A stretch of DNA of 19,024 bases, taken from assembly GCA_902766405.1 (NCBI GenBank), contig CACXDT010000118.1, positions 1 to 19,024 on the forward strand, written 5' to 3'. The notes under the pieces are model-generated. The model did not search any database, was not told the origin of the DNA, and saw nothing but the letters and a program-made list of their open reading frames with translations. The translations under genes were made by a program, and so were the position numbers. Origin of the DNA: Oscillospiraceae bacterium (lineage in GTDB: Bacteria; Bacillota; Clostridia; Oscillospirales; Oscillospiraceae). Positions 1 to 18,019 of the stretch are shown in pieces (position 1 is the stretch's first letter; each line of letters opens with the position of its first letter).

Positions 1-2424
1 CTTGTGGCGGGCGCGGCATTCCGCCTGATCGGTCTCGCCATGACGCCCATCGGCGCGGCGGCGCTCGGCCTGACGGCACTGACGGCATTAGCTGTCGCCC
101 TGAAAGACCTGAGTGACAGCCGCTTTGCGGAGCAGTTCGGCAGCATGGAGCTGGACAGCGCGGCCCTCGCGGAGCACATCGGCAACATCGGCGAGGGCTT
201 CCGGGAGGCTTACAGCCAGGTTGACAGCTTCACGCAGGCCATGAACGAGGCTGTGCAGAGCTACGAGACTGCAAGCAGCACTTTCAGCGGTACGCTGCTG
301 ACGGATATGCTGACGCACGCGCAGCTCACAGAAACCGACAAGGCGAAGCTGACGCAGCTCGGCACGGACATGTTTACCGCCGTTCAGGAGGCGATCACCA
401 ACAGCACAGAGGCCAGCATAAGCTATTGGCAGACGCTTTTCGGCGGCGACGGCACCGCCGAATACGACCCGGCCTATCAGCAGATCATCGAGCTGACCAA
501 TCAGGCGTATGAGGACGCGATAGCACAGGCCGAAGGGATCAGCGAGGGCTTGCGTAACGCCATGACCAGCGCCTTTGCCGACGGTGAAATCAGTCCGGAA
601 GAGTATCAACAGATTCTCTCCTTTGCGCAGAGCTATAACGACGCCGTTGCGCGTGCAACGGCTGAAGCGCAGAGCGAAGAAGAATACGTCAAGATGCAAA
701 AATGGCTGCATCAGGCGCAAACGGCGAGCCTTGATGAAGTCCAGGAGCTGGCTCAGAGCGCGGCAGCAGAGCGTGACGCTATTCTGGCAGATCAGGAAGA
801 CAGATACCTGTCAGAGCGCTATCGTCTGCAATATCGCGGCGCTGACGAGGCTACGCTGGCCGCGGCAGATCAGCGCTACGCCGCGCAGCGGACACAGACG
901 GAGGCTGCCTACGACGATTTCTTGTTTACGCTATGGGACAGCCAAATCCGGCAGAGCGCCCAGGGTGCAAATTACGAATGGCTGTCCGGGATTGCCGGAG
1001 CGTACCTCAGTGGAGAACTGGCCGGCGACACAGCCCTCTCTATGATAACAAGCGAGCTGGGGAAAAGCGCCTATGCCGGGCAATCCGGTTTCTTTACATC
1101 TGGCACTGACCGCTCCCAGCTCGGCAAAATGATGGGCTTCTGGATCGACAGCATGGGCGGAGAACAGGCTGTTGGAGAACGCATTGCGTATTACGAGGAC
1201 AGCGGCAATCAGGCGATGGCTAACCGTCTCTACCAAATGTACGCAGCAGAGCAGCTTATCAATGGTTTCGAGCAGATTACGCAGACCGGGCGCGCGCCAT
1301 GGGATATAGCTGGATGGACGGGTGATTTCCACACGACCGGCCAGAACGACCACATTTACAGTGCGGTCAATCGCAGCGCGGCAGAAGCCGTATTCAGCGG
1401 TTACACTTCCGATTATTCAGCGGATGCAGCGCGGCGTACTGTGGACATTCTCGGCGGCGACGATGGGATTGTCGGCATGTTCTTCGACACGCTTGGCCGC
1501 GCTTCGACCGGCAGCGCCGCTATGAGCGAGCTCGACCGTGCGTGGAATGCTGTGCGAGGGAATGAGGCAGTCGAAGTCCGTAACATGGTTCAACGGCTTG
1601 CCGGCATCTATGATTTCGACGCCATCCTTGCTGACTTCGGCAACGGAAGTAAACTTGCCTCAGAATACAGCGGGTGGCGAAATGCCTATGCCGCATGGCA
1701 AGTAATGTATGGGATGACGGGAGAGCAAGCCGAAGCCTATCGTGTCTCTGTTATCCCGGAAGTTGACACCGCCGCTATTGAGGGGCAGATCAACCCGATT
1801 TCTATACCGATCACGCCCTATGTCGAGGGGACTGACGCGATGGAGGCCCTGCAAGATCAGGGCGTAGAGGTGAGCGTGAACGGCGACACCGGGCAGCTCT
1901 CCGCGACCATCGACGCCGAGGACGGACAAACGCTGCTCCAGTACGTCAGCGGCGACGCGACCGATCTTCACATGACGATCATGGACGAGGACGGGCAGAC
2001 GCTCCGCGAAAATGTGACGGGCAATCCCGCACAGTTGGAGAGCATCATCCGAAGCTATCAGGGCCGGACGATTACGCTTAATATCTCAGGCCGCCGACTG
2101 TTTGCTGAGGGCGGACGTGCTACAACAGCATCGACCTTCGGCGAGGCCGGGCCGGAATGGGCCATCCCGGAGGAACACAGCGAGAACACGGCGGCGCTGC
2201 TGAACGCAGCCCGCGCGGCATCTGGCTTTACCTGGCCTGATCTTCTCAGCCGCTTCGGCGGTATGAACGCAAACGCGAACAACACAACTACCCTTGTCTA
2301 CAGCCCTGTGATAAACGCGGCGGACGCGCGGGGCGTTGATTTGTCGCTACGTGAGGACAAGAAGCGGCTGGAAAAGTGGTGGGAAGAGAAGAAACTGCGC
2401 GACGCGATGGAGGTTTACTCATGA
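1..2424 (+). CDS. Tail tape measure protein, 5'-partial (continues upstream of window)
   Basis: The frame is open to the window edge: codon 1-3 precedes the listed GTG at 4. It spans at least 807 codons of Ala/Gln/Glu-rich helical sequence, with a hydrophobic stretch LIGLAMTPIGAAALGLTALTALAVAL. It lies immediately 5' of LysM and baseplate genes, the canonical tape-measure position. Its stop TGA (2422-2424) overlaps the next ATG (ATGA). Confidence 0.7.
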   Translation, partial: LVAGAAFRLIGLAMTPIGAAALGLTALTALAVALKDLSDSRFAEQFGSMELDSAALAEHIGNIGEGFREAYSQVDSFTQAMNEAVQSYETASSTFSGTLLTDMLTHAQLTETDKAKLTQLGTDMFTAVQEAITNSTEASISYWQTLFGGDGTAEYDPAYQQIIELTNQAYEDAIAQAEGISEGLRNAMTSAFADGEISPEEYQQILSFAQSYNDAVARATAEAQSEEEYVKMQKWLHQAQTASLDEVQELAQSAAAERDAILADQEDRYLSERYRLQYRGADEATLAAADQRYAAQRTQTEAAYDDFLFTLWDSQIRQSAQGANYEWLSGIAGAYLSGELAGDTALSMITSELGKSAYAGQSGFFTSGTDRSQLGKMMGFWIDSMGGEQAVGERIAYYEDSGNQAMANRLYQMYAAEQLINGFEQITQTGRAPWDIAGWTGDFHTTGQNDHIYSAVNRSAAEAVFSGYTSDYSADAARRTVDILGGDDGIVGMFFDTLGRASTGSAAMSELDRAWNAVRGNEAVEVRNMVQRLAGIYDFDAILADFGNGSKLASEYSGWRNAYAAWQVMYGMTGEQAEAYRVSVIPEVDTAAIEGQINPISIPITPYVEGTDAMEALQDQGVEVSVNGDTGQLSATIDAEDGQTLLQYVSGDATDLHMTIMDEDGQTLRENVTGNPAQLESIIRSYQGRTITLNISGRRLFAEGGRATTASTFGEAGPEWAIPEEHSENTAALLNAARAASGFTWPDLLSRFGGMNANANNTTTLVYSPVINAADARGVDLSLREDKKRLEKWWEEKKLRDAMEVYS

Positions 2425-2654
2425 ATCTGACAGGACAGGTCTATCTATGTAGCGCAGGGGAGACCTTCGACAGCGTGGCTCTCACACTTTACGGGGAAGA
2501 GGCCTATGCTGCCGACCTGCTGAATGCGAATCCCTCCTTATGCAGAAAACCGGTTTTCACCGGTGGAGAGGTTTTGGCTCTTCCAATTGTGGAAATCGTG
2601 GAGAACACAAGCGGAAATACCTATATGCCAGCAAAGGCGCCGTGGAAGGAGTGA
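2421..2654 (+). CDS. LysM-like tail protein (P2 gpX / PBSX XkdP-like)
   Basis: ATG at 2421 sits 8 nt after GGAGG, so the listed 2376 start (inside the tape-measure gene) was rejected. The sequence YLCSAGETFDSVALTLYGEEAYAADLLNANPSL...GGEVLALP fits the LysM/gpX pattern (GDTLD..a...YG....vL.aNP.L......G..l.lP). Confidence 0.7.
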   Translation: MNLTGQVYLCSAGETFDSVALTLYGEEAYAADLLNANPSLCRKPVFTGGEVLALPIVEIVENTSGNTYMPAKAPWKE

Positions 2655-3358: not shown

Positions 3359-3667
3359 ATGGCGAGATATCAAATTGACAATGTTGCGTCCCCTATTGAC
3401 TTTCAGGAGAGCAACATTGTAATGCGCACGCTTCAAAACGCCAAAAATCTGCTGATGTGCCAGATGGGTGAAGTGCCATACGACCGATACCGGGGCTTTG
3501 ATCCGGCGCTGTATGACCTCCCGATTGACGAGTTTCGGGAACAGCTCTTGCCGGAGCTTGACAGAGTGATGATGTGGGAACCTGACGTTGAAGTAGTTGA
3601 CGCCGAGGCAACGCTACTCGGCAATGGCGAAATCTACATCAAGGTCATTCTTGAATTACCGTTTTAG
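3359..3667 (+). CDS. Baseplate wedge protein, gp25 / GpW-like
   Basis: 102 aa with AGGAGG-type RBS (taggagg) upstream. MGEVPYDRYRGFDPALYDLP and WEPDVEVVDAE...GEIYIKVILE match the GPW/gp25 pattern (GE.p..p.fG ... EPR..v..v ... g.l.i.i). It lies directly 5' of a baseplate J gene. Confidence 0.7.
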   Translation: MARYQIDNVASPIDFQESNIVMRTLQNAKNLLMCQMGEVPYDRYRGFDPALYDLPIDEFREQLLPELDRVMMWEPDVEVVDAEATLLGNGEIYIKVILELPF

Positions 3668-3678
3668 GAGGCGCTGAT

Positions 3679-4773
3679 TTGGACAATACCGAGCTGCATT
3701 ATCTGACCTACAGCGTAGACGAAATATGGGAACAGATAATACTTAACTATGTAGCCGCCGGTGGAGATATCCTTTATCCGGGCGACGAAAAAGAAATCCT
3801 CCTGCGCGGTGTACAGGCGGCTATCGTTCAGGCTTTCGCCTGTGTTGAAAATGGTCTGTGTATGCAGACGCTGCGCTGCGCGGTCGGAGAATATCTGGAC
3901 GTCCTCGGTGAGCAACGGAGCTGCCCGCGCATTGAAGCAACAAAGGCCCGCGCGGCCGTGACGATCACGACGAACGCCACCGGACAGACGGGCACGCTGG
4001 AAGCAGGCACAACCATGACCGCCGATGGCGAGCTGTACTATGAACTGCTGGAGGACTTCACCATTACCGGATATCAACAGACGGCAACGGTCGAGGTCGA
4101 GGCTGTGCGCGCGGGAAGCGCCGGGAACGGCCTGCTTGCCGGTGTGCAGATGCAACTGGCTGTAACTAACTCGGCAATCTACAGCATCCTTTCGGCGTCC
4201 GACGCCAGCGGCGGCAACGAACGAGAGGAGGACGAGACTTACCGCGATAGGATCCGCGAATACGGGCTTGCCAGTATCTCAACCGGGCCGAAGCGCCAGT
4301 ACGAGGCGGCGGCCAAGGCTGTCAGCAGCGAGATTCTGGACGCCAAGGCACTGAATTTAGGCGCCGGGGAGGTGGGAATCTACCTGATTCTCGCAAGCAA
4401 TTCGGGTGCAGCGGCCATCTTGCAGGCCGTAGAGGAGGCTCTTTCCGCCGAGAATGTGCGCCCCCTAACCGACAATGTTACTGTTCATCGCGCGGTTGAT
4501 GTGCCCTATACACTCAACGTACAGTACCGGGCGGACAGCAGCAGTGCCACCAGTACGGCAATTGCCGAGGCCGTCAGGAACTATCAGGAATGGCAGGACA
4601 GCGTAATCGGCAGGGCTTTTAATCCCGACCGTCTGATGGCCGTCATTTACCAGGCGGGCGCTACGCGCGTCCTGTGGGGCGAGGGGAGCACGTTTGACGG
4701 CGGAGCGGTCAAATACACCGAGATCGACGCGACGCAACGGTGTACAGGCAGCATCACGCTCCAAACCATTTGA
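3679..4773 (+). CDS. Baseplate J-like protein (P2 gpJ / T4 gp6 / XkdT-like)
   Basis: 364 aa with a TTG start 7 nt after AGGAGG (3666-3671). The motif SGGNEREEDETYRDRIRE is the typical Baseplate_J signature (GG.d.Esd..lR.R). Size and position between the W-like and I-like genes both fit. Confidence 0.8.
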   Translation: MDNTELHYLTYSVDEIWEQIILNYVAAGGDILYPGDEKEILLRGVQAAIVQAFACVENGLCMQTLRCAVGEYLDVLGEQRSCPRIEATKARAAVTITTNATGQTGTLEAGTTMTADGELYYELLEDFTITGYQQTATVEVEAVRAGSAGNGLLAGVQMQLAVTNSAIYSILSASDASGGNEREEDETYRDRIREYGLASISTGPKRQYEAAAKAVSSEILDAKALNLGAGEVGIYLILASNSGAAAILQAVEEALSAENVRPLTDNVTVHRAVDVPYTLNVQYRADSSSATSTAIAEAVRNYQEWQDSVIGRAFNPDRLMAVIYQAGATRVLWGEGSTFDGGAVKYTEIDATQRCTGSITLQTI

Positions 4774-4785
4774 GGAGGCGGCGAC

Positions 4786-5682
4786 ATGTTTCAATTTCGC
4801 TGCGAGGATTGGGTGCCGCAATTTATCCTGAACGACAAGAACGGCTACGCCCTCGCAAAAGCGATCGAGGCGGCGATACAGTACATGAATGACAAGGTTC
4901 AGCAGGGCTTCGACTGCCTTGTGAACTGTGACACAATGCCGGAGTGGCGGCTTGATGAACTGGCCTGGGAAACGAACTGCCTGTATGACTACAGCGCCGA
5001 TGTGGAAACAAAACGCCGGTGGATCAAAGACGCGATTCCGCTATACCGCTTGTACGGAACACCGCAGGCAGTCTATCAGTTCATCGGCAGCTATTTCGAT
5101 GATATCGACCTTGAAGAAAGCTGGATCTACGACGGCGAGCCCTACCACTTCCGCGTAACGGTAGACGGCAAGTGGACGCCGGAAAATGAGGCATGGGCGC
5201 GCCGGGCCATCGCCACGGCAAAGAACGTGCGCAGTGTGCTCGACAGCCTGCGCATAGGGCAAAAATGCTTTATCGGAATCACGGCGGAAGGAAAGGTTTA
5301 CGGGCGCTTCACCTACCCCATGACCGGCCCGGAAAATTGGGCCGGGCGCTGGCCGCTGGAAGCTACACTGGCCCATATCGACAAGACCGGTGCTGCTGCC
5401 GTGCAGGCGGAGGCGACCGGCCATACTTTCCCCTACCCGGTGGCGGGAACGCGCCCGGAAATCAACACCCTCGGCCGAACCGCCGAGGCGCAATCCGGCG
5501 TAACGGGCGACGCTGCGCCCTATCACTTCCTATATCCCGTCACGGGAGAGGAGCAGCGAGCGGGCACGGTTCCGCAGGAAAGCACCCTGGGAGCCCTTGA
5601 CAAGAAAGGCATCGAAGCCGCGCGGTCAGAAGATCTCTACGCGCGGATTATCTACAAGCTGTGCGGCCAAGATGAAATCTAA
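4786..5682 (+). CDS. Tail protein I-like baseplate protein (P2 gpI / XkdU-like) with repeat-containing C-terminal extension
   Basis: 298 aa with a GAGGAGG RBS. The N-terminal 130 aa (MPEWRLDELAWETNCLYDYSADVETKRRWIKDAIPLYRLYGTPQAV...YHFRVTV) fit the Tail_P2_I pattern (L..LA.e....w......kR..i......yr.kGT..a). Residues ~175-283 form three FxYPxxG...TLG repeats. Confidence 0.7.
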   Translation: MFQFRCEDWVPQFILNDKNGYALAKAIEAAIQYMNDKVQQGFDCLVNCDTMPEWRLDELAWETNCLYDYSADVETKRRWIKDAIPLYRLYGTPQAVYQFIGSYFDDIDLEESWIYDGEPYHFRVTVDGKWTPENEAWARRAIATAKNVRSVLDSLRIGQKCFIGITAEGKVYGRFTYPMTGPENWAGRWPLEATLAHIDKTGAAAVQAEATGHTFPYPVAGTRPEINTLGRTAEAQSGVTGDAAPYHFLYPVTGEEQRAGTVPQESTLGALDKKGIEAARSEDLYARIIYKLCGQDEI

Positions 5683-7115: not shown

Positions 7116-7277
7116 ATGGCTTACAATCTGATGCACCGTATCATCACCACCGCAAAGAAAGAGGGAACCATCGGCGAGAAAAAGGCCGGTATCATGGACA
7201 AGCTCGATGCCTTTCTGGCGGCCGACCGTCTCACGGCGGAGCAGTACAGGGAGCTTGTCGCGCTGATCGACGCATGA
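7116..7277 (+). CDS. XkdX-like small phage protein, copy 1 (below the ORF-track size cut-off)
   Basis: Hand translation gives MAYNLMHRIITTAKKEGTIGEKKAGIMDKLDAFLAADRLTAEQYRELVALIDA* (53 aa). The GAGGAGGG RBS lies 7 nt upstream. It is a clear paralogue of 7358-7525 and resembles the XkdX pattern (...fl....IT.eeY.el). Confidence 0.65.
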   Translation: MAYNLMHRIITTAKKEGTIGEKKAGIMDKLDAFLAADRLTAEQYRELVALIDA

Positions 7278-7357
7278 GCGCCCTCGCCACCCGCCTCGCC
7301 GGGTGGATCATCAACCGACGTTTTCAACACGATCTTTCAAGATTGGAGGAATACACC

Positions 7358-7525
7358 ATGACCTATAAACTGATGAAGCGCATCATCGAAAACGGCCTCA
7401 AAAAAGGGAACCTTGACCGCGAGGCCACCTTGCAGAAGCTCGATGTGTTCCTGATGGCCGACCGGATCACGGTCGAGGAGTACCAGGAGCTCGTCGAAAT
7501 GATGGGAGGCGCGGACGATGAATAA
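7358..7525 (+). CDS. XkdX-like small phage protein, copy 2
   Basis: ATG at 7358 lies 7 nt after GGAGGA (7345-7350), so the listed 7274 start was rejected. MTYKLMKRIIENGLKKGNLDREATLQKLDVFLMADRITVEEYQELVE aligns with copy 1. Its 3' end overlaps the start of the DGR target gene. Confidence 0.7.
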   Translation: MTYKLMKRIIENGLKKGNLDREATLQKLDVFLMADRITVEEYQELVEMMGGADDE

Positions 7526-8735
7526 CTCCCCGCTGGAATTTCTGGCGAAGAAGTACGGCAACGTCGTCAAGTATGACGCCGCCGGGAACGTGGCCGGGAT
7601 CTATGTGAAATTCCAGAAGATGAAAAGCTCCGACCTCGTGGCCGGGCTGCCGGAGCGCACGCATCCCGCGTTCATAATCAACGGCGTGGAGCAGGATTAT
7701 ATCTTGCTCGGCAAATACAAGGCCGGAGAAAACGGCGTCAGCGGCGGCGCTCTCGTAAGCGCGCCGAACATTATGCCTGCAAGAAGCCTCGGCGCGGATC
7801 AGTGCCTCTCGCGGATGAAAGCGGCGGGCACCGGCATCACGGGCATGACCGTGGCCGACTACGGCTTTATCAAGCTGCTGGCGCAGAAAGAGGGCTGGGT
7901 GCCGAAGGGTAATACCTATTGGGGCCAGAGCCACAAGGACGCGACGGCCTGGGAGGTCGGCAAGGCGCTGACCGTCGGCGCCGTCCGCGGCTATGAGGGC
8001 TGGCGCTATGAGTGCCTGATCGCGCACACCACCGCCGCCGAGCTGAAGCCGGATATCGCGCCGACCTACTGGAAGAAGCTGAACTTCGTCGGGGGCGTGT
8101 CGCAGGACACCGGCAAAGACGCGAACACTCAGACCGGCTATCGCACGCTCAACGGCACCGGCCCGCTGGACTGGTATCTCGGCAACGACCCCGGCAACCT
8201 GGCGGATATCATCGGTTCCAGCCTGGAGCAGCAGTACGGCTACCGCATCGTGGATTGTGAGCTGCAGATCCTCGAAGATAACAACGCCGCCGACCCGAGC
8301 GCCGACCTCTCCGCAACCTCCGCCGCGTGGAAAGCGATCCTTCCGAACGCCTCCGACGACGGCTATACGCTGGTCGCTCCGGGAACGGCCGGGACGCTGC
8401 ATTGGAATTGGACGGGCACCGCAATCCAGCTCGACACGCAATGCGACGACCTGACCGTAGGTTCGAAAGGGCAGTCGTTCAAGACGCTCACCGCGCACGC
8501 CGAACGCCTCCCCTATGTTCCGAGCATCGTCAAGGAGCTGGGTCTTTTCCCGACAGGTTCGGGCGACAACACCGAGGGCTATTACTACGTCAACTTCGTC
8601 GCGGGAGAGCGTTTTCCCCGGCGTGGCGGCTACTACTACCTCACCAGCAGCGCCGGGCTTGGCTCTGTGCATGCCTACTACGAGCGCGGCTATGCGGCCA
8701 CGAACTATGGCTGCCGCCCGCGCTCCCTTCCCTGA
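7518..8735 (+). CDS. DGR target (variable) protein, C-type-lectin/FGE-sulfatase-like fold; probable receptor-binding protein
   Basis: 405 aa with a GGGAGG RBS 8 nt upstream. The last ~40 codons carry the VR. The C-terminus RRGGYYYLTSSAGLGSVHAYYERGYAATNYGCRP has the typical CLec VR scaffold (GG.w......G......N...GfR). The N-terminal HPAFIINGVEQDYILLGKYKAG...MTVADYGFIKLLA resembles FGE/CLec-type DGR targets. It is the last gene of the tail-fibre region. Confidence 0.85.
   Translation: MNNSPLEFLAKKYGNVVKYDAAGNVAGIYVKFQKMKSSDLVAGLPERTHPAFIINGVEQDYILLGKYKAGENGVSGGALVSAPNIMPARSLGADQCLSRMKAAGTGITGMTVADYGFIKLLAQKEGWVPKGNTYWGQSHKDATAWEVGKALTVGAVRGYEGWRYECLIAHTTAAELKPDIAPTYWKKLNFVGGVSQDTGKDANTQTGYRTLNGTGPLDWYLGNDPGNLADIIGSSLEQQYGYRIVDCELQILEDNNAADPSADLSATSAAWKAILPNASDDGYTLVAPGTAGTLHWNWTGTAIQLDTQCDDLTVGSKGQSFKTLTAHAERLPYVPSIVKELGLFPTGSGDNTEGYYYVNFVAGERFPRRGGYYYLTSSAGLGSVHAYYERGYAATNYGCRPRSLP
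8608..8727 (+). repeat. DGR variable region (VR)
   Basis: Ungapped 120-bp alignment to 9578-9697 (offset 970). There are 13 mismatches, at 8621, 8631, 8637, 8640, 8641, 8650, 8665, 8670, 8676, 8679, 8691, 8697 and 8698, and each faces an A in the TR. It lies in frame at the 3' end of the target CDS. Confidence 0.95.
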
Positions 8736-8766
8736 ATCCCTGACCCCTGGACGCTGAATCCCTGAC
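8732..8766 (+). repeat. 13-bp direct repeat CTGAATCCCTGAC x2 flanking the target-gene stop
   Basis: The copies lie at 8732-8744 (containing the TGA stop 8733-8735) and 8754-8766, separated by 9 nt. They sit between the VR end and the GC hairpin. Confidence 0.8.
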
Positions 8767-8790
8767 GGGGCGGCGCGGTAGCGTCGCCCC
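8767..8790 (+). promoter_or_regulatory. GC-rich hairpin downstream of VR (candidate DGR target-recognition cruciform)
   Basis: GGGGCGGCG-cggtag-CGTCGCCCC forms a 9-bp stem (one G-T pair) with a 6-nt loop, 40 nt after the VR/TR homology ends. No U-tract follows on either strand, so it is not a classical terminator. Confidence 0.5.
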
Positions 8791-9091
8791 TCAAAAGAAA
8801 CTCGCTCCATTCCGTTTCCACGGTTTCCGAAAGAGCCGGGAAAACTGCATATTCGCTCCTTCCTTTTTCGGGCACAAATTCAAACCCGCTTCGCTTGGCT
8901 TTGAATTTGTCAACACAGAGAGGGGGCGCGGCGGGTAGCAATTTGCACAACAGGGAGCAGCACCGACCACGCCAAAACCGCCGGAAAAACTTTCGAAGGG
9001 GTTTTACGCGCGCGGTCTAATCTTCTGAGTATTTATTATATACTCCCCCTTACCCCCAAATCGCCCGATTCGGCAAAATGACGGAGGAACC

Positions 9092-9508
9092 ATGCCGGAA
9101 ATCAAGTACACTGACGCCAACCCAGGCCCTTGCTGCCTGAAGATTGAGGACATGATCGACTATGCCAGGCCGATGCTTCAGCGCTGGCCGCCGTTCTTCC
9201 GATACACACTCGGCGAGGAGATCATGAACGAAATGCTGCTGATGCTGCGCCTGGCGACCAAGGCACGCCTGCGCTATATGAACAAAAGCACGCTGCAAGA
9301 CCTGGACACAAGCAAAGAAATCCTGAAAACCTTGGTCAGATCCGCGAACCGAACCGTTTTCACAGACCGGAACGGAGAAGAAAGGCGTCTGCTCAGTAAC
9401 CACAGCTTCGATGTTTGGAGTGGGTACATTGAAGAGATCGGCAAGCTGATCGGCGGCTGGATCAACGCCGTCAGCGGACGGACGAATCGGGGCGACCCCA
9501 ACAAATAG
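9092..9508 (+). CDS. avd: DGR accessory variability determinant (Avd), four-helix-bundle family
   Basis: 138 aa and basic, predicted all-helical. The RYTLGEEIMNEMLLMLRLATKA...K...L..L......L..L...A and IEEIGKLIGGWI pattern is typical of Avd/S23-ribosomal-like proteins. It lies between VR and TR, as in BPP-1. GGAGG lies 4 nt before the ATG, which is a short spacing. Confidence 0.8.
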   Translation: MPEIKYTDANPGPCCLKIEDMIDYARPMLQRWPPFFRYTLGEEIMNEMLLMLRLATKARLRYMNKSTLQDLDTSKEILKTLVRSANRTVFTDRNGEERRLLSNHSFDVWSGYIEEIGKLIGGWINAVSGRTNRGDPNK

Positions 9509-9577
9509 CCGCCATCTGGCGGTTATCCGGGAACGTGCCGTGATTTGGGTAGCTATAGTTTATCCAAAATGCTCTTT

Positions 9578-9697
9578 AGCGTTTTCCCCGACGTGGCGGC
9601 AACTACAACAACACCAGCAACGCCGGGCTTGGCTATGTGAATGCCAACAACGAGCGCGGCAATGCGAACACGAACTATGGCTGCCGCCCGCGCTCCC
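9578..9697 (+). repeat. DGR template region (TR)
   Basis: Non-coding copy of the VR containing 28 adenines, 13 of which are substituted in the VR. Read in the VR frame it is rich in AAC/AAT codons (NYNNTSNAGLGYVNANNERGNANTNYGC). It has the same orientation as VR and RT and lies 260 nt upstream of the RT start. Confidence 0.95.
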
Positions 9698-9957
9698 AGC
9701 ACACATCAAAAGAGCCGAAAAACCACGAGTTACCGGCCGCAATTCTGATGGGAGGGGCGCGTTTCCGTGGCGGGCCAGGCCCGCCTAAATGAAAATCCCG
9801 CACGGCTCCGGCAAGAACACTCCGGGGCATGGCCGGGCGGGAATCGCTGCGAAGCGCCCGGAAGGGCGTAATGCTCAGCCTGTCAGCAGCTTCCCGGTAG
9901 GGAAAACAGGCTACGCATAACGGGAAACGTCACGCGCAGCAGAACGGAGGCGGTCAC
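9698..9957 (+). ncRNA. TR-RT spacer, probable structured 3' part of the DGR RNA
   Basis: 260 nt with no credible ORF. Local helices visible by eye are GGCGGGC-cag-GCCCGCC (9769-9785), CGCCC-ggaa-GGGCG (9855-9868), and the nested AGCCTGT...TTCCC-ggta-GGGAA...ACAGGCT (9877-9912). In BPP-1 the equivalent spacer is part of the priming RNA. Confidence 0.5.
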
Positions 9958-11259
9958 TTGGAGGGGCTGCACAATCTGAGAGACCGCATCTGCGACTTTG
10001 ATAACCTCATGGGCGCGTACCGTGACGCCGCACGGGATAAGCGATACCGCGAGGAAGTCATAGCCTTTACTCTTAACCTCGGCGAAAATCTGCGTCAGAT
10101 CCAGCGCGAGCTTCTGGACATGACCTACACCGTGGGGCCATACCGGGAGTTCTATGTGCGCTTTCCCAAACCGCGCCTTGTCATGGCGCTGGGCTTCCGG
10201 GACCGCGTGGTACAGTGGGCCATCTATCGGCAGATCAACCCCTACCTGGACAAGCGCTACATCGAGCACAGCTACGGTTGCCGCACCGGCAAAGGCACAC
10301 TGGCCGCCGCCGAGTGCCTTTTCAACTGGCAGCAGCTTATCAGCCGCAAAGACGATGCCGACGAGTGGCAGCTTATCAAGGGCGATATCTCGAAGTATTT
10401 CTACCGCGTCGATCACGGCAAAGTACTGGAAACCTACGGCGAAGTATCAGACGACACCTGGTTTTCGTGGCTGATCGGCACGATCATCCGCAATCCAGAG
10501 GTTCCTTTCGGCCTGCCTGTCGGCATGAAGCCGGACGATTGCCCGCGCAGCCAACGGCTTTTCGAGGTTGGGATGCCAATAGGCAATCTGACGAGTCAGG
10601 AGACGGCAAACCTGTTCCTTGACCGGCTGGATCAGTTTTGCAAGCACACGCTGAAGCTGCACTACTATGTGCGCTATATGGACGACTTCTGCATCTTTGT
10701 CAAGGGCAAGGAGGAGGCCAAACGGGTATACGCTGAGATCGAGCGCTTCTTGCGCGAAACGCTGCTGCTGGATATCAGCCCCAAGAGCCGGATTCAAAAG
10801 GCCACGGCGCCGGTTGAGTTCGTCGGCTACCTGATAACACCGCACGGGATCCGGATGCGGAAGAAAACGACGCGGCATATCAAGCGGAGCCTGCGCTTTA
10901 TTTCGGCGTCCTTTGCGCTGGGCGCAATCGGCTATGAAAAAGCAATGGCATCCGCGATCTGCTACATCGGGATGTGTAAACACTGCGAGGGCTACAATCT
11001 GCTGCGGTGGATCGAGGAGAACTTCACGTTGGAAAGAGGCGATGCAGCCATGAGCCAGCTTGACGGGCCGCCCTGCGGAGGGCGGCGTTTTTATTCCATC
11101 CAGCCAAACGAGGACGGCAGCGTAGACGTATATCTTCGCCCGGATGATACAGGCCTGATCCGCGTCGTGCGCGGCGTAACGCCTTATGACGGTCTGGATG
11201 ATGATATACGGGCGCGGTATGACGCCTGGCGCGAGAGCGCTGAAACAATCTTTCTTTAG
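9958..11259 (+). CDS. DGR reverse transcriptase
   Basis: 433 aa with a TTG start 7 nt after GGAGG (9946-9950). The RT motifs are IKGDISKYFYRVDH (motif 3/A-like), GMPIGNLTSQETANLFL (the DGR-diagnostic [ILV]GxxxSQ) and YVRYMDDFCIF (YxDD box). It lies immediately 3' of the TR. Confidence 0.95.
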   Translation: MEGLHNLRDRICDFDNLMGAYRDAARDKRYREEVIAFTLNLGENLRQIQRELLDMTYTVGPYREFYVRFPKPRLVMALGFRDRVVQWAIYRQINPYLDKRYIEHSYGCRTGKGTLAAAECLFNWQQLISRKDDADEWQLIKGDISKYFYRVDHGKVLETYGEVSDDTWFSWLIGTIIRNPEVPFGLPVGMKPDDCPRSQRLFEVGMPIGNLTSQETANLFLDRLDQFCKHTLKLHYYVRYMDDFCIFVKGKEEAKRVYAEIERFLRETLLLDISPKSRIQKATAPVEFVGYLITPHGIRMRKKTTRHIKRSLRFISASFALGAIGYEKAMASAICYIGMCKHCEGYNLLRWIEENFTLERGDAAMSQLDGPPCGGRRFYSIQPNEDGSVDVYLRPDDTGLIRVVRGVTPYDGLDDDIRARYDAWRESAETIFL

Positions 11260-12404: not shown

Positions 12405-13010
12405 ATGAAACTGGTACAGCCTATCCGAGACTTGGACACGCTGCAAAAGTGCTTCGAGATCGCGCGCGAGCATGACGCCCGCCGGAAAACAGGAGAAGTC
12501 TGCTGGGAATTGATATTGCTCGTCGGCCTCAATACCTCGCTGCGCGTGAGCGATTTCCGGCGCTTCAAGGTGTCCGACCTCCGGGGCCGCGACTATGCAC
12601 AGATGCAGGCCAAAAAAACCGGCAAGGAGGCGCGGATCCTGATTAACCCTCAGGCCCGGAAGGAGATCAACCGCCTGCTGGCCGGGAGAAAGCCGGACGA
12701 GTTCATTTTCCAGAGCCGCCAGAAGGACGGCGTTACCCACAAGGCCCGCCCGATTTCCAGACAGCGGTGTTATCAGATCATGAACGTCATCGCCAAGAAA
12801 GCCGGGATTGAGGAACGAATCGGCTGCCATACGCTGCGGAAAACCTTCGGTTACCATTACTACCAGACGACCGGCGATGTGGTGAGCCTGCAAAGGATCC
12901 TGGGCCACTCCTTCCAGCGGGAAACGCTGGTTTATATCGGCGTCGTTCAGGAGAACATCGACGAATCCATGATGAAAATGAACATGCTGACCGGGCGGCG
13001 AGCCCGGTAA
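12405..13010 (+). CDS. Short tyrosine recombinase (phage-integrase catalytic domain only)
   Basis: ATG at 12405 was chosen because the listed 12357 start lies inside the terminator. The catalytic signature is in order: NTSLRVSD (Arg I), KTGKEARI (Lys), HTLRKTF (His-x-x-Arg), LGHS (His) and TLVYI (Tyr). At 201 aa there is no room for a normal N-terminal core- or arm-binding domain. Confidence 0.8.
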   Translation: MKLVQPIRDLDTLQKCFEIAREHDARRKTGEVCWELILLVGLNTSLRVSDFRRFKVSDLRGRDYAQMQAKKTGKEARILINPQARKEINRLLAGRKPDEFIFQSRQKDGVTHKARPISRQRCYQIMNVIAKKAGIEERIGCHTLRKTFGYHYYQTTGDVVSLQRILGHSFQRETLVYIGVVQENIDESMMKMNMLTGRRAR

Positions 13011-17633: not shown

Positions 17634-17692
17634 TCCTTTCTGCCCTCGTGACCTCCGGGGCGGGCATGATTTGAAATAATCCGGCGGCGTTA
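17634..17692 (-). repeat. 59-bp junction unit A (contains junction repeat copy 7, 17672-17693)
   Basis: The plus strand reads tcctttctgccctcgtgacctccggggcgggcatgatttgaaataatccggcggcgtta, identical to 17961-18019. On the minus strand it starts with the TAA stop and ends in AGAAAGGA (RBS). Confidence 0.95.
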
Positions 17693-17960: not shown

Positions 17961-18019
17961 TCCTTTCTGCCCTCGTGACCTCCGGGGCGGGCATGATTTG
18001 AAATAATCCGGCGGCGTTA
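17961..18019 (-). repeat. 59-bp junction unit B (contains junction repeat copy 8, 17999-18020)
   Basis: Perfect 59/59 direct repeat of 17634-17692. The flanks diverge immediately on both sides. Confidence 0.95.

Follow-up and report, generated by a model that had tools for sequence, protein, structure and literature searches.

A 120-nucleotide repeat pair with adenine-only differences, very probably part of a BPP-1-type diversity-generating retroelement of a phage

Contig CACXDT010000118.1 of an Oscillospiraceae bacterium (GenBank assembly GCA_902766405.1) was analysed over a stretch of 19,024 nucleotides, which is called the window throughout. It contains two copies of a 120-nt segment which differ from each other exclusively at positions where one of the copies has an adenine. 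The question raised by this locus is which process has written such a one-sided pattern, and whether the copy found in the window still takes part in it. The answer developed here is that the two copies are, in all likelihood, the variable repeat (VR) and the template repeat (TR) of a complete canonical diversity-generating retroelement (DGR) of the type known from the Bordetella phage BPP-1, carried in this case, too, by a phage or by a phage-like contig of about 56 kb. DGRs are already known to be abundant in phages of gut or rumen, and the element in the window is one more of this well-known kind.

The two repeats and their variation among relatives

The VR (8608-8727) and the TR (9578-9697) align without gaps over 120 columns. 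Thirteen of these columns are mismatches, which corresponds to 89% identity as a direct repeat, and each of the mismatches stands opposite an adenine of the TR. The TR is composed of 29 adenines and 91 other bases, so that 13 of 29 adenine-facing sites differ and none of the 91 others. The probability that 13 randomly placed mismatches would all land on the 29 adenine positions is P = 7.7e-10, and chance is therefore excluded as the cause of the adenine bias. The borders of the repeat are sharp. On the upstream side G of the VR faces T of the TR (8607/9577), on the downstream side T faces A (8728/9698), and the sequences beyond this last position are unrelated. When any base was permitted at the adenine positions, neither a further TR-like copy nor a second VR was found on either strand of the window.

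The VR forms the end of the open reading frame 7518-8735, which encodes the target protein of the element. In this frame 12 of the changes affect the first or the second base of an AAC, AAT or TAT codon; the remaining one turns CGA into CGG and is silent. Ten residues are altered relative to the TR, with asparagine replaced by tyrosine five times and by leucine, serine, histidine and alanine once each, and one tyrosine replaced by serine. Seventeen codons of the TR are able to change their amino acid by mutagenesis of adenines and none can be turned into a stop codon in this way; the theoretical repertoire which results from these 17 codons is about 9.5e15 proteins. An initial annotation, made from the letters alone, had already described an ungapped pair with 13 mismatches, all at TR adenines, together with the codon and residue changes just listed. 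Realignment gave the same mismatches, and the codon and residue bookkeeping is exact in this frame. Its base counts of 28 adenines and 92 other bases have to be corrected to 29 and 91, while its statement that no position other than adenine differs stands.

Polymorphism of the VR was then compared between assemblies, not between reads of one population. Scans of metagenomes, viral contigs and genomes with the target yielded relatives with at most 88% identity, and the relatives which share their TR with the window came from a protein search and from look-ups of exact proteins. When the VRs of 11 related loci were aligned each with its own TR and pooled with the pair of the window, 163 of 341 TR adenines were mismatched as compared to 5 of 1099 other positions. 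Four of these five lie at the first two positions in the loci L014 and L018, where the repeat begins 2 nt later, and the fifth is found in the locus L009, which is treated below. Nine of the relatives have a clean adenine-only pattern with respect to their own TR. The TRs of different loci differ from each other at 8-14 non-adenine positions and each VR tracks its own TR; therefore information keeps flowing from TR to VR.

The most direct comparison is offered by loci with a TR 100% identical to that of the window. These are L022/L023 and L035, the VRs of which differ from the VR of the window at 14 and 19 sites, all of them facing adenines, on a background divergence of about 3-6%, with about 3% in the remaining target gene and about 10% in the avd gene. 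Taking the alleles of the window, L022 and L035 together, 23 of the 29 adenine-facing sites vary and 0 of the 91 others. Among the other relatives L001 and L011, with 98.7% identity over 7.2 kb and one and the same TR sequence, show 14 differences in the VR, all 14 facing adenines, at a density tenfold above that of the flanks, and between the target proteins P0171 and P0172 the only differences are four residues of the VR. The TR thus stays invariant in these comparisons while the VR turns over, and variation of the VR in nature is confined to adenine-facing sites. Related genomes had been proposed in the initial annotation as the place to look for such a confinement, and the three same-TR alleles bear it out.

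A side observation concerns the distribution of divergence between the window and L022, which is mosaic. The avd region (8931-9513) is only 90% identical, as compared to 98.5% for the part comprising TR, spacer and the start of the reverse transcriptase (RT) gene (9528-10272) and 100% for the TR alone. Such a pattern suggests either recombination inside the cassette or a strong constraint on the RNA.

Template RNA, target site and protein components

For a model of the template RNA, the region 9515-9965 was aligned with that of seven relatives (eight loci in total) and folded with RNAalifold. The model contains 70 pairs outside the body of the TR, for which 94% of the cells are paired as compared to about 40% when partners are slid, and 39 of the 70 pairs show changes on both sides. 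Upstream of the TR lies a conserved box which forms a long-range helix of 11 pairs with a spacer segment downstream of the TR (9529-9539:9756-9766); 98.9% of its cells are paired and two of its pairs change on both sides. By analogy this helix would correspond to the duplex termed 'cPRT Stop' in BPP-1. The helix formed by the 3' end of the TR and the spacer (9693-9701:9746-9754) is invariant in eight out of eight loci, and in the stem-loop just after the TR (9712-9738) seven of nine pairs change on both sides. Their positions match those in BPP-1, where the respective elements are the template:primer duplex and the stem-loop which binds the accessory variability determinant (Avd), and the same functions may be assigned to them here. 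The reference for these assignments is the cryo-electron microscopy structure of the BPP-1 RT-Avd-RNA complex, which comprises the 'cPRT Stop' duplex with an adjacent stem-loop and adenosines, the Avd-binding stem-loop, and a template:primer duplex between TR and spacer (Handa et al., bioRxiv 10.1101/2023.10.23.563531). Similar RNA elements were found in 207 of 278 Avd-containing DGRs (bioRxiv 10.1101/2023.10.23.563531). A scan of the window against Rfam at gathering thresholds matched no family, hence the RNA of this DGR is not represented in Rfam.

On the side of the VR, three elements follow one another. The adenine-free and GC-rich 3' end, which the VR shares with the TR, would be a segment resembling the IMH (initiation of mutagenic homing) element of BPP-1 (PMC3240598). 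Downstream of it, both copies of a 13-nt repeat are kept in all 15 loci examined and are absent from the TR. These repeats are not among the target-site elements of BPP-1 as described in the sources used, and they may be part of a target-recognition element. The third element, which the TR lacks as well, is a hairpin or cruciform in the DNA, for which 95% of cells are paired over the 15 loci as compared to 38-63% with the partners slid, with changes on both sides in four of the ten pairs. Its loops across loci are GGTA, GATA, GGGA or GGCA only, all of which match the consensus GRNA. In phage DGRs a GC-rich stem of 7-10 bp with a 4-nt GRNA loop has been described 4-34 bp after the VR, and this structure is required for homing in BPP-1 (Guo et al. 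2011, PMC3240598).

The target protein is homologous to TaqVP (PDB 5vf4), with E=2.4e-31 from the single sequence and 2.4e-38 from a profile of 37 sequences. The alignment spans the VR and reaches the C-terminus at an identity of about 21-24%. TaqVP is the variable protein of a Thermus aquaticus DGR and has a C-type-lectin fold of the FGE type with a 40-residue VR at its C-terminus (bioRxiv 10.1101/432187). By homology, the target is thus predicted to have a C-type-lectin scaffold which displays the VR. An AlphaFold2 model, calculated from an alignment of 37 sequences in which all homologues were at least 75% identical, reached a mean predicted local distance difference test (pLDDT) score of 59, with values below 50 in the VR. 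TaqVP was also the best Foldseek match of this low-confidence model (E=5e-14, template modelling score about 0.5), which is taken as corroboration only. In addition the target contains a module resembling carbohydrate-binding module families 5 and 12 (CBM5/12), which matches the chitin-binding domain of chitinase A1 (1ed7) with E=3e-4 from the single sequence and 1.4e-5 from the profile. Target residues 150-195 are skipped by the alignment with TaqVP, so that the module appears to be inserted relative to this protein. If so, the target would pair a fixed glycan-binding module with a variable lectin surface. By analogy, the target, which is encoded at the end of the tail module, is probably a receptor-binding protein. 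Its homologue in the Faecalibacterium phage FP_Lagaffe, with 29% identity, is annotated as 'BPP-1 major tropism-determinant-like protein'.

The RT has the sequence IGNLTSQ as its motif 4, which fits the pattern (I/V/L)GxxxSQ characteristic of domain 4 in the DGR clade of RTs (PMC3521204), and YMDD as the catalytic box. It is 46% identical to the RT of FP_Lagaffe. Its reading frame starts with TTG at 9958, preceded by a GGAGG ribosome-binding site 7 nt upstream; this is the sole in-frame start which preserves the conserved N-terminus of the RT, and it is conserved in relatives. At the other end the RT has an extension of about 65 amino acids (residues ~369-433; 11062-11256), which is covered by no RT of the phage collection among the 12 best matches listed, all of them ending at residues 348-377. 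The coding sequence of this extension is kept in L009 although the RT core is deleted there.

Alternative explanations and the proposed mechanism

By every hallmark of BPP-1-type DGRs that can be read from a sequence, the element is one of them. The initial annotation had gone further and called the pair the footprint of mutagenic retrohoming that has really happened and not a decayed repeat, a view which is now backed by an intact TaqVP-like target, by Avd, by an RT of the DGR type, by the structured RNA and by the hairpin after the VR. Several observations weigh against it or limit it. The 3' ends of VR and TR are identical, without the difference between IMH and IMH* inside the repeat, and because of this identity the basis of directionality is to be sought downstream of the VR. 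At 39 nt, the distance between VR and hairpin slightly exceeds the 4-34 bp published for phage DGRs. Avd scores 69.8 bits with the NCBIfam model DivGenRetAVD, under its cut-off of 80, and owing to the poor AlphaFold model the C-type-lectin fold leans on sequence homology to TaqVP. The evidence comes from assemblies, not from reads, which bears on the heterogeneity of the VR in the sampled population and on present-day activity. Finally, the exact VR allele of the window, as part of the whole 405-amino acid protein (P0001), was recovered from NCBI, Logan and ENA on 7 contigs, 10 to 57 kb in length, and turnover of the VR is not rapid if these contigs are independent.

The latter two points are also compatible with a fossil DGR, the pattern of which was written by past retrohoming in a copy that no longer diversifies. 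That decay does occur among these relatives is seen in the RT-deleted L009 (3332-4330; metagenome-assembled genome RUG14340, uncultured Clostridiales). About 1.2 kb including the RT core is lost there, the N-terminal part of the target is different, and the VR has a 3-nt deletion and one non-adenine mismatch relative to its own TR. An ungapped reading of this pair, with 13 non-adenine mismatches, was dropped since the gapped alignment gives the 3-nt deletion. L009 looks like a decaying DGR and offers a natural contrast to the clean pair of the window, in which there are zero non-adenine mismatches and indels. Moreover RT, Avd, RNA helices and hairpin of the window are intact and like those of the relatives, and the closest relatives with the same TR have other VRs. 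A fossil is thus considered unlikely.

A second alternative is that the VR as deposited represents an assembly consensus or a chimera of a mixed VR population rather than one haplotype. Assembly of DGR VRs from metagenomes is known to be difficult, and irregularities are present among the relatives. In L026 an extra C is found near the 3' end of the TR, and in L018, from human gut, the VR (4591-4711) has a 1-nt insertion relative to the TR which breaks the frame, so that the protein match ends at residue 373. The latter stems either from misassembly of a mixed VR population or from the gene being a pseudogene. For the window such an origin is very improbable, as the identical protein including its VR was recovered on the 7 contigs from three sources mentioned above, the frame is intact and the non-adenine sites are unaffected. 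Even if it were true, the nature of the element would be unchanged.

An ordinary duplicated segment, which diverged through drift or gene conversion among paralogous sequences, would account for a 120-nt direct repeat of this identity and has hardly any probability left. All differences lie on one base of one copy, the same asymmetry is present in 11 relatives, the TR is invariant while the VR varies, and the copies have dedicated DGR genes between and next to them; drift and gene conversion are refuted by the adenine-only pattern, by the asymmetry in the relatives and by the comparison of loci with the same TR. Adenine-specific base editing of the VR by deamination would explain the specificity for adenine, is refuted in its simple form by the replacement of TR adenines by T six times, by C four times and by G three times where only G would be expected, and in a window which encodes a DGR-type RT and Avd and no deaminase its probability is practically nil.

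For the preferred reading, a BPP-1-type DGR, a mechanism can be proposed in which the order of the biochemical steps, the priming site, the start of the cDNA near G9692 and the role of the target in receptor binding are adopted from BPP-1 by analogy. The RNA from just after avd through the TR and the 260-nt spacer would fold in such a way that the long-range helix encloses the TR, the 3' end of which pairs with the spacer. RT and Avd would bind this RNA and prime cDNA synthesis in cis from the spacer strand, copying from about G9692. The TR would be copied faithfully save opposite adenines, where any nucleotide could enter. The cDNA would then take the place of the VR in the 3' part of the target gene, with guidance from the adenine-free GC-rich end that both repeats share and from the elements which are specific to the downstream side of the VR, namely the two 13-nt repeats and the hairpin with its GRNA loop. 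As the outcome, up to 17 codons would be rewritten in the C-terminal ligand-binding surface of a C-type-lectin protein resembling TaqVP and Mtd.

An intron-bearing sister lineage and the genomic setting

In a sister lineage, which has a target of 418 amino acids with about 75% identity, the TR is split by exactly 248 nt. This insert matches the Rfam group I intron family over its full length (RF00028, 78.7 bits as compared to a gathering threshold of 50, E=2.4e-20, model positions 1-253). It follows the U which forms the U.G pair of helix P1, and its last base is G. When the exons are joined, they match the intron-less TR alleles of L027 and L028 with 100% identity, and the junction is thereby fixed at GGGT/ATGTC (the slash marking the point of insertion). 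The homologous site in the TR of the window, GGCT/ATGTG at 9634/9635, is unoccupied.

Six intron-bearing loci from different samples were compared. Their introns differ at 0-3 positions and their TR exons are identical, barring the extra C of L026. Five distinct VR alleles are found among them, with pairwise differences at 10-17 positions which all face TR adenines, and each of these VRs differs from its own spliced TR at adenines only, again apart from the extra C. In the kilobase upstream of the VR, L026, L030, L031 and L033 are diverged by 0.3-0.7%. The polymorphic adenine-facing sites of the VR flank the exon junction on both sides, with 9 of 11 A sites polymorphic in the part corresponding to the 5' exon and 14 of 15 in that of the 3' exon, and no intron sequence is present in the VRs of the six loci. 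The simplest reading of these sequences is that the TR RNA of the sister lineage is spliced before reverse transcription and that the element stays active. Alternatively the intron might have spread horizontally into phages which had already diversified. This is less parsimonious, as all four fetched members of the "TDSND" subgroup carry the intron and the single intron-less member checked, L027/L028, belongs to the other subgroup. With splicing before reverse transcription as the preferred explanation, it is likely that the window represents the intron-free member of a phage DGR clade of which a sister lineage has in its TR a group I intron which is self-splicing, yet still diversifies the VR. 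Scans of viral contigs with exact intron patterns returned only the contig already known. In the literature searched no natural intron in a TR is reported, only artificial intron tags, which is not proof of novelty. Experiments with such artificially intron-tagged TRs demonstrated that the information of DGRs passes through RNA (PMC5703328).

Coordinates of all features are collected in Table 1. The genes are arranged on the same strand in the order contractile-tail module, target, avd, TR, 260-nt spacer and RT, and the tail module also has several small open reading frames upstream of the target. The 3' side of the RT is occupied by unassigned open reading frames, a short tyrosine recombinase (12405-13010) and an HD-phosphohydrolase-like protein. 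No tRNA or tmRNA was found in the window. A 55.9-kb metagenome scaffold from ENA (L024) contains the window with 100% identity, and relatives are located on contigs of 54-57 kb, one of them binned with an uncultured Oscillospiraceae metagenome-assembled genome and others from rumen-type and human-gut samples. This points to a contractile-tailed phage of gut or rumen Bacillota with a genome of about 55 kb as the carrier of the element, the hosts being probably Bacillota of the Oscillospiraceae type.

Two further repeat structures were noted in the surroundings. The small genes 7116-7277 and 7274-7525, which adjoin the target upstream, are paralogues that both match phrog_2310 and have a 73-nt repeat in common with 75% identity (7195-7267, 7431-7503). 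On the minus strand between 14765 and 18020 the motif TAACGCCGCCSGATYATTTYRAA occurs six times at junctions of consecutive leftward genes. Five of the six copies begin on the preceding gene's stop codon, and behind most of them come the ribosome-binding site and the start codon of the following gene. Two of the copies (17634-17692, 17961-18019) lie inside a perfect 59-nt repeat.

Table 1. Features of the element and its surroundings, with the template repeats of the sister lineage. Positions refer to the window unless a related locus is named.
Feature	Position	Strand	Description
Variable repeat (VR)	8608-8727	+	codons 364-403 of the 405-amino acid target; adenine-only mismatches to the TR
Template repeat (TR)	9578-9697	+	120 nt, 29 adenines; intergenic, between avd and RT
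Target (variable protein) gene	7518-8735	+	405 amino acids; phrog_2889 at 2.2e-62; final gene of the tail/baseplate block; VR at the C-terminus
CBM5/12-like carbohydrate-binding module	7947-8075	+	target residues 144-186; PF02839, 27.2 bits (cut-off 26.2)
Adenine-free GC-rich VR 3' end, TGGCTGCCGCCCGCGCTCCC	8708-8727	+	20 nt, same in TR; homology stops here
Two copies of CTGAATCCCTGAC	8732-8766 (starts 8732, 8754; period 22)	+	between VR and hairpin; copy 1 overlaps the stop codon
Hairpin/cruciform after the VR	8767-8790	+	10-bp GC-rich stem with one G.T pair, loop GGTA; DNA fold
Avd (accessory variability determinant)	9092-9508	+	138 amino acids; Pfam bAvd PF22296, 70.6 bits (cut-off 40); phrog_3206 'Avd protein of DGR' at 1.6e-23
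Conserved box GGGAACGTGCC, 5' strand of long-range helix	9529-9539	+	upstream of TR; pairs with 9756-9766, enclosing the TR
Helix of TR 3' end CTCCCAGCA (9693-9701) and spacer TGATGGGAG (9746-9754)	9693-9754	+	encloses stem-loop 9712-9738
Rest of structured spacer	9756-9940	+	3' strand of long-range helix 9756-9766; stem-loop 9769-9785; A-rich run TAAATGAAAAT 9786-9796; 3' domain with several helices 9796-9940
DGR reverse transcriptase (RT)	9958-11259	+	433 amino acids; RVT_1 at 1.6e-20; phrog_1423 at 3e-105
Tape-measure protein	4-2424	+	cut by the window edge
Baseplate-hub-like protein	2421-2654	+	
Baseplate wedge protein	3359-3667	+	
Baseplate_J	3679-4773	+	
Tail_P2_I (gpI-like)	4786-5682	+	
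Intron-bearing TRs of the sister lineage	L006 7790-8157; L026 2017-2385; also L030, L031, L032, L033		L006 on the same contig as L015 and L025
Intron-less TR alleles	L027 4790-4909; L028 1916-2035		

The system to which the element bears the closest resemblance is the prototype DGR of BPP-1 (mtd-avd-TR-brt). Both have the same gene order at the end of a tail module, a VR at the C-terminus of the target with adenine-only differences concentrated in AAC and AAT codons, a GC-rich VR 3' end followed by a GC-rich hairpin with a 4-nt GRNA loop, the SQ motif of the RT, and an RNA with an upstream:downstream duplex around the TR, base pairing between the spacer and the TR 3' end, and a stem-loop after the TR. 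The window differs from BPP-1 in the greater distance of the hairpin, with two conserved 13-nt repeats in between, in the identity of the VR and TR 3' ends mentioned above, in a spacer of about 260 nt as compared to 140 nt, in the TTG start and the C-terminal extension of the RT, and in its likely host, which belongs to the Bacillota and not to Bordetella. In sequence, the target resembles TaqVP more than Mtd, which was not among the matches of the PDB sequence search. With TaqVP it shares homology over the full length, comprising an N-terminal wrap and the FGE-type C-type-lectin core, and a 40-residue C-terminal VR ending in RP(R/A). In contrast to TaqVP, the protein of the window has the CBM5/12-like insertion and has its gene in a phage, beside those of the baseplate; TaqVP is encoded on the chromosome, and an intracellular location is assumed for it (bioRxiv 10.1101/432187). 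The closest deposited phage is FP_Lagaffe (MG711461), which was compared by target and RT only. It has its target upstream of the RT and the same host group of gut Bacillota, with the 29% identity of the target extending over its full length. It is a distant relative; when deposited phages were searched at the nucleotide level, FP_Lagaffe gave the sole match, which covers 272 nt of the RT gene.

The element in the window is an unusually complete example in that every cis element described for BPP-1 has a counterpart here: hairpin, stop duplex, Avd-binding stem-loop and template:primer duplex. With the exception of the template:primer duplex, which is invariant, each of them is backed by covariation in a family far removed from the Bordetella phage, and this supports the generality of the BPP-1 mechanism. 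With dozens of natural VR alleles this family is also well populated for studying the varied residues of a TaqVP-like scaffold. The sister lineage with its intron could matter more than the element of the window itself. If the reading given above is true, it would be a natural counterpart of the intron-tag experiments, in which the TR can host a self-splicing intron without loss of function, and the intron would be a natural marker for the RNA intermediate.

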